Assembly: GCF_046105845.1 (NCBI RefSeq)
Contig: NZ_CP151004.1
Source: Escherichia coli
GTDB taxonomy: Bacteria; Pseudomonadota; Gammaproteobacteria; Enterobacterales; Enterobacteriaceae
DNA length: 64,000 nt
Reading direction: 5' to 3' (one strand)
In this document: piece by piece, positions 29,301 to 35,300 of the stretch
Position numbering within the stretch: position 1 is the first letter of the stretch
How the letters are laid out: each line of letters opens with the position of its first letter
Position numbers: made by a program

Positions 29301-32300
29301 CGTCTTATCGACGTATTGCTGCGCCCGGAAGTGCTGGTCTTTGAGCCGCTGTGGACGGTGATCCCCGGCAACAAAGCGATTCTGCCGATCCTCTGGTCGC
29401 TGTTCCCGCACCATCGCTACCTGCTGGATACCGATTTCTCCGTGAATGATGAACTGGTGAAAACCGGTTATGCAGTGAAACCGATCGCTGGTCGCTGTGG
29501 TAGCAATATCGACCTGGTCAGCCATCATGAAGAGGTGCTGGACAAAACCAGCGGTAAATTTGCCGAGCAGAAAAACATCTATCAGCAACTGTGGTGTTTG
29601 CCGAAAGTGGACGGTAAATACATTCAGGTATGTACCTTCACCGTTGGCGGCAACTACGGTGGGACGTGTTTGCGCGGTGATGAATCACTGGTCATTAAAA
29701 AAGAGAGTGATATTGAACCGTTAATTGTGGTGAAAGAGTAATACATGTTGTAGCAACTCCGCACTGATTATGAAGAATAATCAGTGCGGGGATTAATCAA
29801 AATATTCAATATTTATATATTCAAATATTTATTCATTTCATGTGTGAATGTATTAACCAGTGGAATGCCTGTGTTTTGATTATTTCTAAAGGTTTTGAAT
29901 GAATGCTTATTATCTGATACACAAGAAATAACACTCTTTTTATCGTTAAAAAATGATATTTCACTTTGCCCACGCCGTTAAAGTCACTGATAATGCGTCC
30001 GTTCGTAAATTCAAAATGGCGTAATCTAATATATGCTAAATTTATTTGTTGGCCTTGATATATACACGGGGCTTTTGTTATTACTTGCTCTGGCATTTGT
30101 GTTGTTCTACGAAGCAATCAATGGTTTTCATGATACGGCGAATGCGGTGGCAACCGTTATTTATACTCGTGCCATGCAACCACAACTTGCTGTGGTGATG
30201 GCGGCATTTTTTAACTTTTTTGGCGTATTGCTAGGCGGACTTAGCGTTGCCTATGCCATTGTCCATATGTTGCCAACCGATTTGTTGCTGAATATGGGGT
30301 CAACTCACGGCCTGGCGATGGTCTTTTCCATGCTGCTGGCGGCGATTATCTGGAACCTGGGAACGTGGTTCTTTGGTTTACCGGCCTCCAGTTCGCATAC
30401 CTTGATTGGTGCGATTATCGGCATCGGTTTAACCAACGCGCTGTTAACCGGCTCATCGGTGATGGATGCGTTAAACCTGCGTGAAGTGACCAAAATTTTC
30501 TCCTCGCTGATTGTTTCCCCTATCGTCGGCCTGGTCATTGCGGGTGGTCTGATTTTCCTGCTGCGCCGTTTCTGGAGCGGGACGAAAAAGCGTGACCGTA
30601 TTCACCGCATTCCGGAAGATCGCAAAAAGAAAAAAGGCAAACGTAAGCCGCCATTCTGGACGCGTATTGCGCTGATTGTTTCCGCTGCGGGCGTGGCGTT
30701 TTCGCACGGCGCGAACGACGGGCAGAAAGGGATCGGCCTGGTGATGCTGGTACTGGTGGGGATTGCCCCTGCTGGTTTCGTCGTCAATATGAATGCGTCC
30801 GGCTATGAAATTACCCGTACCCGCGATGCCGTCACCAACTTTGAACACTATCTGCAACAGCATCCTGAACTGCCGCAGAAGTTGATTGCGATGGAACCTC
30901 CATTGCCTGCGGCATCGACTGATGGCGCGCAAGTGACGGAGTTTCACTGTCATCCGGCAAATACCTTTGATGCGATTGCGCGCGTTAAAACGATGCTGCC
31001 AGGCAATATGGAAAGCTACGAGCCGTTAAGCGTGAGTCAGCGCAGCCAGCTGCGCCGCATTATGCTGTGCATCTCTGATACTTCCGCGAAGCTGGCGAAA
31101 CTGCCAGGCGTCAGTAAAGAAGACCAGAACCTGCTGAAAAAACTGCGCAGCGATATGTTAAGCACCATTGAGTACGCACCGGTATGGATCATCATGGCGG
31201 TAGCACTGGCGCTCGGCATTGGCACCATGATTGGCTGGCGTCGTGTAGCGATGACCATCGGTGAGAAGATTGGTAAGCGCGGCATGACGTATGCGCAAGG
31301 CATGGCGGCACAAATGACGGCGGCAGTGTCTATCGGCCTTGCCAGTTATATTGGGATGCCCGTCTCCACAACACACGTCCTCTCGTCTGCGGTAGCAGGG
31401 ACGATGGTGGTGGACGGCGGTGGGTTACAGCGTAAAACGGTAACCAGCATCCTGATGGCGTGGGTGTTTACTTTACCGGCGGCGATTTTTCTTTCTGGTG
31501 GGTTGTACTGGATAGCATTGCAGTTGATTTAACCTTCCTGAAAATGCCCGGTCCTGGCGATCGGGCATTTCCATTTTTGACTAGTGATAACCACGCGCGG
31601 TCATAAAATCCGTAATCGCTTTTTCTGCATCAACCAGCACCTTTTCCAGTGGCTGATTGGCGTCGATATCAACCAGTTGTGCACCACCAAAGGTTAACTG
31701 TGGCGTTATGGCTATCTTTCTTGCCAGCGATTCCCTTTTGTGGTCAGGCTTACGCGCGCAGGCCACGTCTAGATCGACATTGAGTTTGATGACCAGATCA
31801 GGCTTATGGCTCGCCATCCAGTGAAACGCTTTACGTTCCTGGCTTGCCAGCCATGAGACAAACCGGCCGCCTTCAACGTTAGGCGGGAACACTGTACCAT
31901 CGTAAGCGCCAGGAATTTGGTCCTGAGGATAACGGTCGGTTAGAACAATTAACCCGCGACGACGACAGGCAAGCATATGACGAAAGCGCAGTAAGCGACG
32001 GGCGACAAACGCTGTAATTACCAGCGCCGGAACAGGGCCAGGCATTTTTTTTGCTGTTTTCACCTGATTTCGTTCAATTGTTTTATGTAAGGATTTTCCC
32101 ATCAACGGTAATTTTGTCACTGCACGACCGACATTTCCGGCCTGTTTTCCTAAATGAACTCTTTCGGCTGCACCATATTTTTCGACAACGGTAATGAGAT
32201 GTTCACACACCGTTGACTTGCCTGAACCATCGCTACCAATAACGGCAATTAATGGAGGTGTTATTGACTGCATGAATATATCCTTTAATTTAAATATCCA

Positions 32301-35300
32301 TTAAAAATATTTATTTGGTTAATATGTTTTTATGAAAGCGTAATTCAGGTCAATGTCACAATTAACCATTGTCACAATAAGGTTGAACGGATATTCTGAG
32401 CACGGACCACGTAATATTCAATACATTATTTGCTGCCGGGTTTTTCGTGAATCAACGTAATATGTCAATAATTAATTCCACGCCAGTGCGTGTTATTGCC
32501 ATTGTAGGATGTGATGGTTCAGGTAAATCGACCCTCACGGCAAGCCTGGTAAATGAACTGGCAGCAAGAATGCCAACAGAACACATTTATCTCGGGCAAT
32601 CGTCCGGGCGAATTGGCGAATGGATTTCACAGCTCCCTGTTATTGGCGCACCTTTTGGGCGTTATTTGCGAAGTAAAGCGGCACATGTGCACGAAAAGCC
32701 CTCAACACCGCCTGGCAATATTACTGCTCTGGTTATCTATCTGCTTTCCTGCTGGCGGGCGTACAAGTTTCGCAAAATGTTGTGTAAAAGCCAGCAAGGC
32801 TTTCTGCTCATCACCGACCGCTACCCGCAGGTTGAAGTGCCGGGTTTTCGCTTTGATGGCCCGCAATTGGCAAAAACCACGGGCGGTAACGGTTGGATAA
32901 AAATGTTAAGGCAGCGCGAGCTGAAGCTGTACCAATGGATGGCATCTTATTTGCCCGTATTGTTGATTCGTCTTGGCATTGATGAACAAACGGCGTTTGC
33001 GCGTAAACCTGACCACCAACTGGCAGCGTTACAGGAAAAAATCGCCGTTACGCCGCAACTGACATTCAATGGTGCAAAGATCCTTGAACTGGATGGTCGG
33101 CAACCAGCCGATGAAATTCTGCAAGCGTCACTACGCGCAATTCACGCCGCGCTTTCCTGATCACCAAAATGGATAGGGGATGATTTAACGAATGGATGCA
33201 CTACAAACACAAACTGTTATTAGTACAACCGCGCCGCAGCCCAGCTACATTCCGGGGCTAATTGCGGTGGTCGGGTGTGATGGCACCGGTAAATCCACAC
33301 TGACCACCGACCTGGTGAAATCGCTGCAACAACACTGGCAAACCGAGCGGCGCTATCTGGGGCTGCTCTCCGGCGAAGACGGCGACAAAATCAAACGATT
33401 GCCGTTGGTTGGCGTCTGGCTGGAACGGCGACTGGCGGCCAAATCCTCGAAAACCCAAAGCATGAAAACCAAATCTCCTGCGCTATGGGCGGCGGTGATT
33501 ATGTACTGCTTCTCGCTGCGAAGAATGGCGAATCTACGCAAGGTTCAGCGACTGGCGCAAAGTGGCGTTCTGGTGGTCAGCGATCGCTTCCCGCAGGCTG
33601 AAATTTCGGGCTTTTATTATGACGGACCGGGGATTGGCGTCGAACGTGCGACCGGGAAAATCAGCATGTTTCTGGCGCAGCGCGAACGGCGTTTATACCA
33701 ACAAATGGCGCAATACCGTCCTGAATTAATCATTCGTTTGGGGATTGATATTGATACTGCCATCTCCCGCAAGCCTGACCATGACTATGCCGAGCTGCAG
33801 GACAAAATCGGTGTTATGTCGACGATTGGCTATAACGGCACAAAAATTCTTGAGATTGATTCCAGAGCGCCCTACAGCGAAGTGCTGGAACAGGCACAGA
33901 AGGCGGTTTCTCTGGTTGCCATCGTTTCTGACCGCCGAAGTTTAACTTAAGGCTGGCGGGATACTTTTTACTATCAACGATAAGGTCAGGCTGAATTGGC
34001 GGGTTTTAACATCAAACATTGGTTTGCAGATGGCGCGTTTCGCACCATTATTCGCAATAGCGCCTGGTTAGGCTCCAGTAATGTCGTGAGCGCCTTGCTG
34101 GGTCTGTTGGCGCTCTCGTGTGCCGGTAAAGGGATGACGCCCGCCATGTTTGGCGTACTGGTGATTGTGCAATCGTACGCCAAGTCGATCAGCGATTTTA
34201 TTAAGTTTCAGACATGGCAGCTGGTGGTTCAGTACGGAACACCAGCATTAACCAACAATAATCCGCAGCAATTCCGCAATGTCGTCTCATTTTCCTTCTC
34301 GCTGGATATCGTCAGCGGCGCGGTGGCGATTGTCGGCGGCATTGCCTTACTCCCTTTTCTTTCCCATTCATTAGGTCTGGATGACCAAAGCTTTTGGCTG
34401 GCGGCGCTGTATTGCACGCTCATTCCTTCAATGGCTTCCTCCACGCCGACCGGCATTCTGCGTGCGGTAGATCGCTTCGATTTAATTGCTGTACAGCAGG
34501 CGACGAAACCTTTTCTGCGCGCAGCGGGGAGCGTCGTAGCCTGGTATTTTGACTTTGGTTTTGCGGGCTTTGTTATTGCCTGGTACGTGTCGAATCTGGT
34601 TGGCGGCACCATGTACTGGTGGTTTGCCGTGCGCGAATTACGCTGCAGAAATATCCATAACGCCTTCAAATTGAATCTGTTTGAGTCTGCCCGACACATT
34701 AAAGGCGCGTGGAGTTTTGTCTGGTCAACCAACATTGCCCACTCCATCTGGTCGGCACGTAACTCGTGCAGCACAGTGTTGGTGGGGATCGTGTTAGGAC
34801 CCGCTGCCGCCGGGTTATTTAAAATCGCCATGACATTCTTCGACGCCGCCGGAACGCCAGCGGGTTTACTGGGTAAAAGTTTTTACCCAGAGGTGATGCG
34901 TTTAGATCCGCGCACCACCAGACCGTGGTTGTTAGGCGTGAAGTCAGGTTTACTGGCGGGCGGAATCGGTATTCTGGTGGCGCTCGCGGTGTTGATCGTC
35001 GGCAAGCCGCTCATTTCGCTGGTGTTTGGCGTTAAGTATCTCGAAGCGTATGACCTGATTCAGGTGATGCTGGGCGCAATTGTGATTTCGATGCTGGGCT
35101 TCCCACAGGAGTCATTGCTATTGATGGCGGGAAAACAGCGTGCTTTTCTCGTGGCGCAAACCATCGCCTCAATCGGCTACATCGTATTGCTGTTCATGTT
35201 CTGTCATCTGTTTGGCGTGCTGGGGGCTGCATTTGCTTACTTCGCTGGGCAATGTCTGGATGTGGTGCTCTCGCTAATTCCAACCTTAAAGGCATTTTTT

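Follow-up and report, generated by a model that had tools for sequence, protein, structure and literature searches.

The systems of Caulobacter and Sulfolobus acidocaldarius are two of the closest described relatives, in organisation, of the locus analysed here. In Caulobacter, the ceramide kinase CpgB (CCNA_01218) has the LCB5/diacylglycerol-kinase fold and a GGDG motif (PMC10331486), and LptF2 and LptG2 have been implicated in sphingolipid transport in a preprint that also draws the locus of E. coli UTI89 (10.64898/2026.04.12.717747). According to the literature, BL21 and UTI89 are among the E. coli strains with a sphingolipid locus. The Spt enzyme of E. coli B has been assayed, the E. coli B orthologues of the ceramide core have been assayed or assigned, and yghO (ECD_02850) has been listed as the counterpart of CC_1154 (PMC9386255). 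The second system is PPK3 of Sulfolobus acidocaldarius, which consists of two adjacent paralogues of the thymidylate kinase (TMPK) fold, formerly annotated as dTMP kinases, whose operon also encodes a CHAD protein (PMC12995831). The literature search returned no paper on the sphingolipid head group or the lipid product of the E. coli locus. It found yghR, yghS and yghT only in gene lists, from a silkworm virulence screen and from the SlyA regulon, where SlyA overexpression in K-12 raised yghS 3.1-fold (PMC5797941), and it found no paper on YghRST function.

The kinase genes and the sphingolipid block

The window, a stretch of 64,000 nucleotides of E. coli DNA, contains the intact open reading frames of yghT (31581-32273, minus strand, 230 aa, ATG start), yghS (32447-33160, plus strand, 237 aa, GTG start) and yghR (33192-33950, plus strand, 252 aa, ATG start), with the same coordinates and lengths as in the RefSeq annotation of the closest E. 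coli genome. In BLASTP comparisons YghT was 37% identical to YghS (E 6e-54) and 34% identical to YghR (E 3e-48), while YghS and YghR shared 44% identity (E 7e-63), and 53 columns of the three-way alignment were invariant. Hence, the first-pass annotation of three paralogous P-loop proteins at 31581-33950 was confirmed, and by sequence comparison their paralogy is well above chance. The alignment also bore out the proposed common Walker A motif, G(S/C)DG(S/T)GKST. Three further motifs that had been assigned to all three proteins, DRYPQ, ARKPDH and TPQLTF(G/N)G, are present in YghT and YghS, but YghR has DRFPQ, SRKPDH and MSTIGYNG at these places.

As was noted before, yghT diverges from yghS-yghR, and the AT-rich spacer of 173 bp between them (32274-32446, GC about 0.44) is presumably a control region. 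It contains one weak promoter-like match (32369-32397), which is not above chance. Between the convergent pitB and yghT genes there is a terminator-like hairpin with a 12-bp stem (31542-31570), which is to be read as a pattern match only, because terminator-like sites in this region are not above chance. In general, the promoter and terminator scans of the region gave site numbers no higher than chance.

The trio had been described as flanking an accessory block, which is correct for one side; the opposite side of the block ends at yghO/glcC. On the plus strand, the kinase genes are followed by yghQ (33996-35345), which encodes a MOP/Polysacc_synt-type flippase-like membrane protein, named lipopolysaccharide biosynthesis protein in RefSeq, and by a gene for a 274-aa protein that RefSeq calls hypothetical (35345-36169). 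Next on this strand is the open reading frame of a protein that RefSeq assigns to the YtfJ family (36178-36741), which is probably periplasmic, judging from its hydrophobic N-terminus. Then come the paralogues of LptF (LptF2-like, 36772-37842) and LptG (LptG2-like, 37839-38918), both identified from the annotation of the closest RefSeq genome and the latter also from its open reading frame. The minus strand carries the genes for serine palmitoyltransferase (spt, 38953-40125), a specialised acyl carrier protein (acpR, 40125-40373), a cerR-like reductase of the NAD-dependent epimerase/dehydratase family (40405-41319) and an acyl-ACP synthetase, or fatty acyl-AMP ligase (aasR, 41316-43040), while the N-acyltransferase gene yghO (43409-44551), the counterpart of the bacterial ceramide synthase gene CC_1154, is on the plus strand. 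These assignments follow the RefSeq annotation of the closest genome and, for acpR, cerR and aasR, also the published work (PMC9386255). The ceramide core is complete: the window contains spt, acpR, aasR, cerR and cerS (yghO) in intact form, and the closest RefSeq genome names all five. The InterPro family of yghQ is also represented in Caulobacter, by CC_1166. No head-group gene of the CpgA-D type was found in the E. coli locus.

Fold of the kinases and of the neighbouring protein

The size and motifs of the three proteins had led to the proposal that they are kinase-like enzymes. This is supported by fold search, which identified a P-loop kinase fold, specifically the TMPK fold, with the P-loop, the DRX motif and the LID all present in YghT, YghS and YghR. 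All three groups keep every catalytic-type residue, for YghS and for YghR as judged from 66 orthologues, and D113-R114 of the DRX motif is invariant (100%) within T, S and R alike. Every sequence of the family has its nearest neighbour within its own group, with identities of 58-63% within and 35-43% between the groups, and in these comparisons T, S and R are three ancient orthologous groups. The segment that binds the NMP in TMPKs is replaced by a basic insert of about 45 residues, and the residues conserved in a group-specific manner are located in the low-confidence segment 41-78. The net charge is +10 to +14 per kinase, to which the acceptor segment alone contributes +3 to +7. Fusion proteins joining S to R (P0121) and T to R (P0122 and P0029) were also found, which suggests that the kinases act together physically.

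The Pfam and NCBIfam searches of the kinases gave nothing but sub-threshold TMPK and P-loop matches, and the diacylglycerol-kinase family was absent from their output. Homology to CpgB, which was suspected at first, was ruled out, as the LCB5/diacylglycerol-kinase fold with its GGDG motif is different from the P-loop fold of YghRST. An anti-phage defence identity was also rejected, because the matches to PADLOC models were weak, not exceeding 19 bits (E from 2e-4 to 6e-3), and with few exceptions covered the P-loop alone. Some relatives of about 500 aa carry an N-terminal domain with a GETDLDLLV motif, which is reminiscent of nucleotidyltransferases. The idea that this domain corresponds to the 274-aa neighbour was dropped, since it had no phmmer match to that protein, and it had no Pfam match.

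The 274-aa protein encoded at 35345-36169 has, according to fold search, which was the only method to recognise it, the two-lobed helical architecture of the CHAD fold, a polyphosphate-binding module, and this predicted fold is reported here for the first time. The protein itself had neither a Pfam match nor a sequence match in the PDB, and none of the 43 members of its family matched the Pfam CHAD model. In alpha-, beta- and gammaproteobacteria it is found together with the kinases. Caulobacter CC_1167 was considered as its counterpart and ruled out, because it is a CDP-glycerol glycerophosphotransferase-like protein.

Distribution and a possible role in head-group phosphorylation

Gene neighbourhoods were compared in 51 species loci with complete 20-kb windows, and the counts ignore phylogeny. 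The triad of yghT, yghS and yghR was present in 46 of the 51 loci, and 41 of these 46 had ceramide-synthesis genes within 10 kb. This linkage spans three proteobacterial orders and persists through rearrangements of the block. Co-occurrence with the synthase operon had been proposed as a check on whether the kinases are connected to the lipid, and the result supports such a connection. A MOP protein adjoins the kinases in 32 of the 46 triad loci, and the YtfJ-family gene was found in 32 of the 51 full loci. Among 5426 complete E. coli genomes, 4057 carry the whole block. Against the connection, about 550 E. coli genomes have lost spt and still have intact yghTSR. Outside ceramide loci, the T-type kinase is accompanied by PAP2 lipid-phosphate phosphatases (in 10/10 of the full loci without ceramide genes), by GT4 glycosyltransferases and by a gene of the LmtA-like lipid A 1-phosphate methyltransferase family, which in L055 and L046 lies directly upstream of T on the same strand. 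Compact modules of a T-type kinase and the CHAD-fold protein without ceramide genes within 10 kb occur in L046, L056, L062 and L077, which suggests that the ancestral substrate may not be a sphingolipid. Among the distant kinase relatives, one is fused to a MOP flippase (P0212) and another is encoded directly after a MOP flippase gene (L081); MOP flippase adjacency was also seen in L084.

The reading we put forward, in which our confidence is about even, is that YghT, YghS and YghR, built on the thymidylate-kinase fold, are competent to transfer phosphate from ATP, and that they serve as head-group kinases of an anionic sphingolipid, replacing CpgB and possibly building more than one phosphate. 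We infer that ceramide would be made at the cytoplasmic face by Spt, AcpR, AasR, CerR and YghO, and would then be phosphorylated by the three kinases, acting as the head-group module of an E. coli-type pathway. In the kinases, a long, flexible and strongly basic segment would have taken the place of the nucleotide-acceptor site. Since each paralogue keeps its own conserved residues in the acceptor region, each probably catalyses a different step, maybe in sequence, and because TMPK chemistry puts phosphate onto phosphate, the product may be a diphosphate or carry still more phosphates. For the CHAD-fold protein we envisage either binding of the phosphate-rich product or a scaffold role for the kinases. 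The phosphorylated lipid would be flipped by YghQ and carried on in the direction of the outer membrane by LptF2/LptG2. This proposed role matches that of CpgB, a soluble cytoplasmic kinase, encoded among sphingolipid genes, by which an anionic head group is begun, and the E. coli locus likewise has the five ceramide genes, a MOP flippase and LptF2/G2. However, as the folds are unrelated, the triad would be an analogous rather than homologous stand-in for CpgB. The kinases may also be likened to LpxK, the lipid A 4'-kinase, a P-loop kinase whose substrate, the precursor of a membrane lipid, is phosphorylated on the cytoplasmic side and only then flipped and exported by the Lpt system. To our knowledge, there are no TMPK-fold enzymes that act on a lipid.

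A bolder version of this proposal, which we consider improbable, is that phosphates are added in succession until ceramide, or in the T-only modules some other lipid, has a pyro-, tri- or longer oligophosphate head. The CHAD-fold protein would then hold the growing chain, and the MOP flippase and Lpt-like machine would export the lipid-anchored oligophosphate to the cell surface. Membrane lipids of this kind would form a class not known before, and the enzymes making them would be a lipid kinase family descended from TMPK.

Other activities and substrates

By fold and by profile the trio comes closest to TMPKs, and RefSeq names YghS and YghT accordingly, so the three could be genuine dTMP or other NMP kinases that supply nucleotides for head-group activation. 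The nucleotide-site positions D/E12, F74 and R78 of TMPKs are also partly kept, as D15 and R93 and, in T and R, as F89, so that a nucleotide-like acceptor is conceivable. However, the weak TIGR00041 scores of the trio (24.4, 24.4 and 30.9 bits) reach only about one third of the curated cutoff of 83.25, the Pfam Thymidylate_kin match of YghT has an E of 0.026, and only 9 of 117 family members match that model at E<=0.001. By MAFFT, the Arg of the TMPK xREPGG motif, which binds the dTMP phosphate, falls on the invariant G42, and by HMM alignment it falls on Q44/S52/L59; neither alignment showed a conserved Arg at this position in the T, S or R groups. The basic insert and a LID (RKPDH) about 10 residues shorter than in TMPKs also argue against this activity, and the locus has no nucleotidyltransferase to use the product. 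An essential canonical tmk is present elsewhere in the E. coli genome. Moreover, YghRST are three paralogues in a lipid locus, unlike Tmk (PF02223, TIGR00041), and the retention of three specialised paralogues in lipid loci would be hard to account for. We therefore regard nucleotide kinases as very improbable, dismiss the dTMP kinase identity, and consider the RefSeq name a widespread mis-annotation, which is corrected here. Even more remote is the idea of transport ATPases energising LptF2/LptG2 or YghQ. It would fit the LptB-like size, the adjoining permease genes and the name "ABC-type ... ATPase component" given to some homologues in one source, but the ABC-family matches are limited to the P-loop (residues about 8-40), an ABC fold was not recovered, and Caulobacter LptF2/G2 co-purify with the housekeeping LptB (10.64898/2026.04.12.717747).

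The likeness to PPK3 has several sides: neighbouring paralogues of the TMPK fold carry a wrong dTMP kinase name, their acceptor region is basic, similar to the cPPK3 cleft, the locus encodes a CHAD-fold protein, and the paralogue fusions point to a heteromer. The trio could thus form, with the CHAD-fold protein, a hetero-oligomeric polyphosphate kinase or polyP-dependent phosphotransferase comparable to Saci_2019/2020, which would make or consume polyP or use it as phosphate donor, the connection to the lipid cluster being indirect or via polyP-dependent phosphorylation. A His_Phos_1 phosphatase, of the superfamily that includes SixA, in the Oecophyllibacter locus is consistent with this, but it was seen in that locus only, and the annotation of the E. 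coli locus shows neither PPX nor SixA. The paralogues number three, not two, and all keep the DRX arginine, which is lost in the regulatory PPK3 subunit, so that a catalytically dead regulatory subunit is missing. No specific sequence affinity of YghRST to the PPK3 structure was found. Most predicted PPK3 organisms are without PPK1 and PPK2, while E. coli has PPK1, and the conserved partners are MOP flippase, LptF2/G2, PAP2 and ceramide genes rather than phosphate-metabolism genes. We consider polyP chemistry unlikely. Also unlikely, though slightly less so, is another envelope substrate, such as lipid A/LPS phosphate, polyprenyl phosphate or a lipid-linked glycan, which would use the same flippase and Lpt-type export as the sphingolipid, so that the linkage to spt would come from a common export route and not from a common substrate. 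It would explain the T kinase and CHAD modules with GT4, two PAP2 types and the LmtA-like methyltransferase, the Oecophyllibacter locus with GT4 genes and flippases and no spt nearby, and the distant relatives found in Wzx/Wzy-type exopolysaccharide clusters with sulfotransferase and GT4 or fused to GT4 domains. On the other hand, glycosyltransferase or PAP2 genes were found in 0/44 Enterobacterales and Xanthomonadales loci, where the ceramide genes are the sole lipid-synthesis genes, and the full triad, unlike T by itself, was found only alongside ceramide, MOP or LptF2/G2 genes, with the exception of L072.

About three quarters of complete E. coli genomes carry an intact but cryptic sphingolipid locus, and the only candidates for head-group enzymes in it are the three kinases and the CHAD-fold protein. 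With the reading of YghRST as sphingolipid head-group kinases, a hypothesis open to direct testing is available for four uncharacterised genes, namely yghR, yghS, yghT and the one downstream of yghQ. Provided that the three kinases act on lipid, they would constitute a new TMPK-derived lipid kinase family, independent of the Caulobacter and eukaryotic ceramide kinases, and enterobacteria would have a strongly anionic outer-membrane lipid. By analogy to CPG2 of Caulobacter, such a lipid might affect polymyxin sensitivity, detergent resistance and host recognition.

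Paralogy and fold of YghT, YghS and YghR

The three open reading frames described in the first-pass annotation are genuine and lie where it had placed them: yghT was listed at 31581-32273 on the minus strand (230 aa), and yghS at 32447-33160 (237 aa) and yghR at 33192-33950 (252 aa) on the plus strand. The same three genes are annotated by RefSeq in the best-matching genome, that of a soil E. coli with 99.0% identity over the yghTSR stretch. The proposed paralogy was clear in BLASTP comparisons of YghT with YghS (37% identity, E 6e-54), YghT with YghR (34%, E 3e-48) and YghS with YghR (44%, E 7e-63), and the three-way alignment contained 53 invariant columns. 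Among the motifs reported as shared, Walker A is present in all three proteins, while DRYPQ, ARKPDH and TPQLTF(G/N)G hold for YghT and YghS but not for YghR, which has DRFPQ, SRKPDH and MSTIGYNG instead.

As had been noted, yghT is divergent from yghS-yghR; the 173-bp spacer between them (32274-32446) is very AT-rich, with GC content falling to ~0.44 across yghT-yghS. SlyA overexpression in K-12 increased yghS 3.1-fold (PMC5797941), and this response, together with the AT-rich spacer, fits a silenced locus without laboratory expression. On its other side yghT lies tail to tail with pitB (30033-31532), as also in species loci L002-L011 and L018, and the sequence between these convergent genes shows a hairpin pattern. 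The pitB-yghT adjacency was found only in Escherichia, Citrobacter, Pseudocitrobacter and Hafnia, and it may reflect local synteny rather than a functional tie to phosphate supply.

The NCBIfam dTMP kinase model gave 24-31 bits for the three proteins versus a cutoff of 83.25, the Pfam Thymidylate_kin model matched YghT with an E of 0.026, and only 9 of 117 family members matched the latter at E<=0.001. The comparison of a profile of 117 relatives with PDB returned thymidylate kinases, matched in three collinear segments (best E 7e-10). The sub-threshold library matches and the PDB profile matches thus place YghT, YghS and YghR, as judged by sequence, among remote members of the thymidylate kinase (TMPK) fold, which gives a more definite form to the kinase-like nature suggested earlier. 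A dTMP kinase identity was rejected because the thresholds were widely missed, the arginine of the TMPK xREPGG motif, which holds the dTMP phosphate, is gone (G42 or Q44 is aligned to it), a basic insert of ~45 residues replaces the NMP-binding segment, and the LID is ~10 residues shorter. Hence, the RefSeq naming of YghS and YghT as dTMP kinases is an over-annotation.

When each GTDB species was represented by one genome, the scan recovered 79 distinct loci, and in these T, S and R, the groups of YghT, YghS and YghR, formed three clean orthologous groups. The nearest neighbor of each protein was always from its own group, and identity was 58-63% within groups versus 35-43% between them, with S and R the closest pair. 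In each group GxDGxGKST, DR[YF]PQ, D125-G, E146, RKPDH and K186 are kept at 95-100%, and none of the groups looks like a dead regulatory subunit. The residues conserved group-specifically cluster in the flexible segment 41-78, which suggests that T, S and R act on three different acceptors or at three different steps. All three groups are strongly basic, with mean net charges of +10 to +14. The predicted fusions of S to R (protein P0121) and of T to R (P0122 and P0029, the latter a predicted single polypeptide at about 9932-11317 of locus L084) suggest that the paralogues could work together physically, and hint at a hetero-oligomer.

Distribution and conserved neighborhood

Among 5426 complete E. 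coli genomes, yghTSR was found in 4743, the spt-aasR block in 4186, the whole 11.5-kb block in 4057 and any part of it in 4782. By difference of counts, about 550 genomes have yghTSR without the rest. Since K-12-like strains (genome matches H42-H44) retain only 31581-35064, which comprises yghT, yghS, yghR and a yghQ truncated at 35064, the rest of the locus being lost, the genomes with yghTSR and without spt are deletion remnants and not evidence for independent distribution. The stretch 31400-34100 was matched at >=99% identity in only two of the 4743 genomes, the best matches being soil, leaf-litter and wildlife isolates. E. whittamii and other Escherichia species were also close by protein comparison, and the lineage from which the window derives may be an environmental or divergent one within Escherichia.

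The locus in the window continues with yghQ, encoding a flippase of the MOP type, a 274-aa hypothetical protein, a YtfJ-family protein, LptF and LptG paralogues, and then spt, acpR, a CerR-like reductase gene, aasR and yghO. The five ceramide genes were assayed or assigned in E. coli B (PMC9386255), and Caulobacter LptF2/G2 were implicated in sphingolipid transport in a preprint, a figure of which includes the E. coli UTI89 locus (10.64898/2026.04.12.717747). The YtfJ-family gene (36178-36741, plus strand), whose product has a hydrophobic N-terminus, sits where Caulobacter loci encode LptC2. Our literature search found no paper that gives YghR, YghS or YghT a function.

The co-occurrence with the synthase genes, which the first-pass annotation had put forward as a check, was strong across species. 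Counted as raw species numbers that ignore kinship, the triad of T, S and R was present in 46 of the 51 loci with a complete 20-kb window, and ceramide genes lay <=10 kb away in 41 of these 46. The 274-aa protein accompanied the triad in 40 of the 46 loci, a MOP flippase in 32 and LptF2/G2 in 28. The association was seen in Enterobacterales, Xanthomonadales (Dyella, Rhodanobacter, Luteibacter) and Betaproteobacteria, and it persists even though the ceramide block lies on either side of yghT depending on the genus.

The 274-aa neighbor and kinases outside ceramide loci

The 274-aa protein encoded directly after yghQ (35345-36169, plus strand) had no match in Pfam and none by sequence in PDB, and no sequence library recognized it. 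Its structural model was highly confident (pLDDT 94.6), and a Foldseek search of AFDB50 returned homologues at 26-41% identity with TM-scores of 0.87-0.97, many of them named CHAD domain-containing protein in UniProt; by this modeled structure it is a predicted CHAD-fold protein. The homologues come from Sphingomonas, Zymomonas, Acetobacter, Komagataeibacter, Gluconobacter, Oecophyllibacter and Commensalibacter, which are mostly sphingolipid producers. The invariant residues in the family of the 274-aa protein are mostly Arg, Lys and His; CHAD domains serve as modules for binding polyphosphate (10.1101/567040). The Oecophyllibacter locus encodes a T-R fusion kinase back to back with the CHAD-fold protein, next to two GT4 genes, two MOP flippase genes and one histidine phosphatase gene.

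The T kinase also occurs in other company. PAP2 lipid-phosphate phosphatases were encoded in 10 of the 10 full loci without ceramide genes versus 3 of the 41 with them, and the T-only loci among the 51 never contained ceramide, MOP or LptF2/G2 genes. Beyond Enterobacterales, T adjoins an LmtA-like membrane methyltransferase and two kinds of PAP2 protein (L055 9111-11353; L046 9057-13700; L072 8404-9818). The scores of the methyltransferase, 112-119 bits versus a cutoff of 325, mean only family-level resemblance to LmtA, whose family is that of the Leptospira lipid A 1-phosphate methyltransferase. Its gene lies directly upstream of T on the same strand in L055, where a PAP2 gene follows T, and in L046, where both form a compact module with GT4, CHAD-like and PAP2 genes on the other strand, between unrelated flanks.

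More distant relatives of ~500 aa (P0162, P0168, P0171 and about 50 others) have an N-terminal domain of ~265 aa, matching nothing in Pfam, with a conserved HFKSN...GETDLDLLV motif that presumably resembles a nucleotidyltransferase. In one exopolysaccharide cluster the gene for such a relative (L081 7223-8731) immediately follows that of a Polysacc_synt flippase and lies near ATP sulfurylase, sulfotransferase, GT4 and Wzy genes; other relatives carry a fused MOP flippase or GT4 domain. Judging by this context and by the company of T outside ceramide loci, the CHAD-fold protein and lipid-phosphate enzymes are apparently the oldest partners of the kinases, and the S and R paralogues are seen alongside ceramide synthesis and Lpt-like export.

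Candidate role in head-group synthesis

We give an even chance to the explanation that YghT, YghS and YghR are kinases that use ATP to assemble the phosphate-containing head group on the sphingolipid that the locus produces. In this role they would stand in for the Caulobacter ceramide kinase CpgB, whose LCB5/DAG-kinase fold is unrelated, and for the remaining Cpg enzymes, none of which the E. coli locus encodes. The phosphate-onto-phosphate chemistry of TMPK, the three paralogues predicted to be active and a partner with the fold of a polyphosphate binder suggest that more than one phosphate could be added, possibly as pyro- or oligophosphate. By analogy, flipping of the phosphorylated product would fall to YghQ and its extraction to LptF2/G2. 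Our inference extends to the substrate, to how many steps there are and in which order they run, and to what the CHAD-fold protein does.

The surroundings of T outside ceramide loci (PAP2, LmtA-like and GT4 genes) and the exopolysaccharide-cluster relatives could also be explained if the kinases served a different envelope lipid or glycan with a shared export route, which we consider possible but unlikely. Somewhat more doubtful is a polyphosphate kinase system like Sulfolobus PPK3, which consists of two TMPK-fold paralogues. The DRX arginine, missing in the regulatory PPK3 subunit, is kept by all three Ygh proteins, their sequence affinity to the PPK3 structure is confined to the P-loop, neither PPX nor SixA is encoded in the E. 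coli locus, PPK1 is already present in E. coli, and the conserved partners are membrane-lipid genes. With the phosphate-holding arginine and the NMP segment of TMPK missing, true nucleotide kinases are very improbable. Transport ATPases are the least credible identity, because ABC models match the P-loop only and LptB serves Caulobacter LptF2/G2.

The head-group kinase function is a well-supported hypothesis, based on fold, conserved catalytic residues, paralogy, synteny and fusions, and is testable directly in E. coli. The ygh genes and the E. coli sphingolipid locus were already known. What is new is the assignment to the TMPK fold with failed dTMP kinase membership, the parallel with PPK3, the apparent antiquity of the triad, with catalytic residues intact and a tie to ceramide genes across three proteobacterial orders, and the predicted CHAD fold of the adjacent hypothetical protein, which is found alongside the kinases in groups ranging from alpha- to gammaproteobacteria. 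The module would thus be a bacterial sphingolipid head-group kinase set drawn from a different enzyme family.
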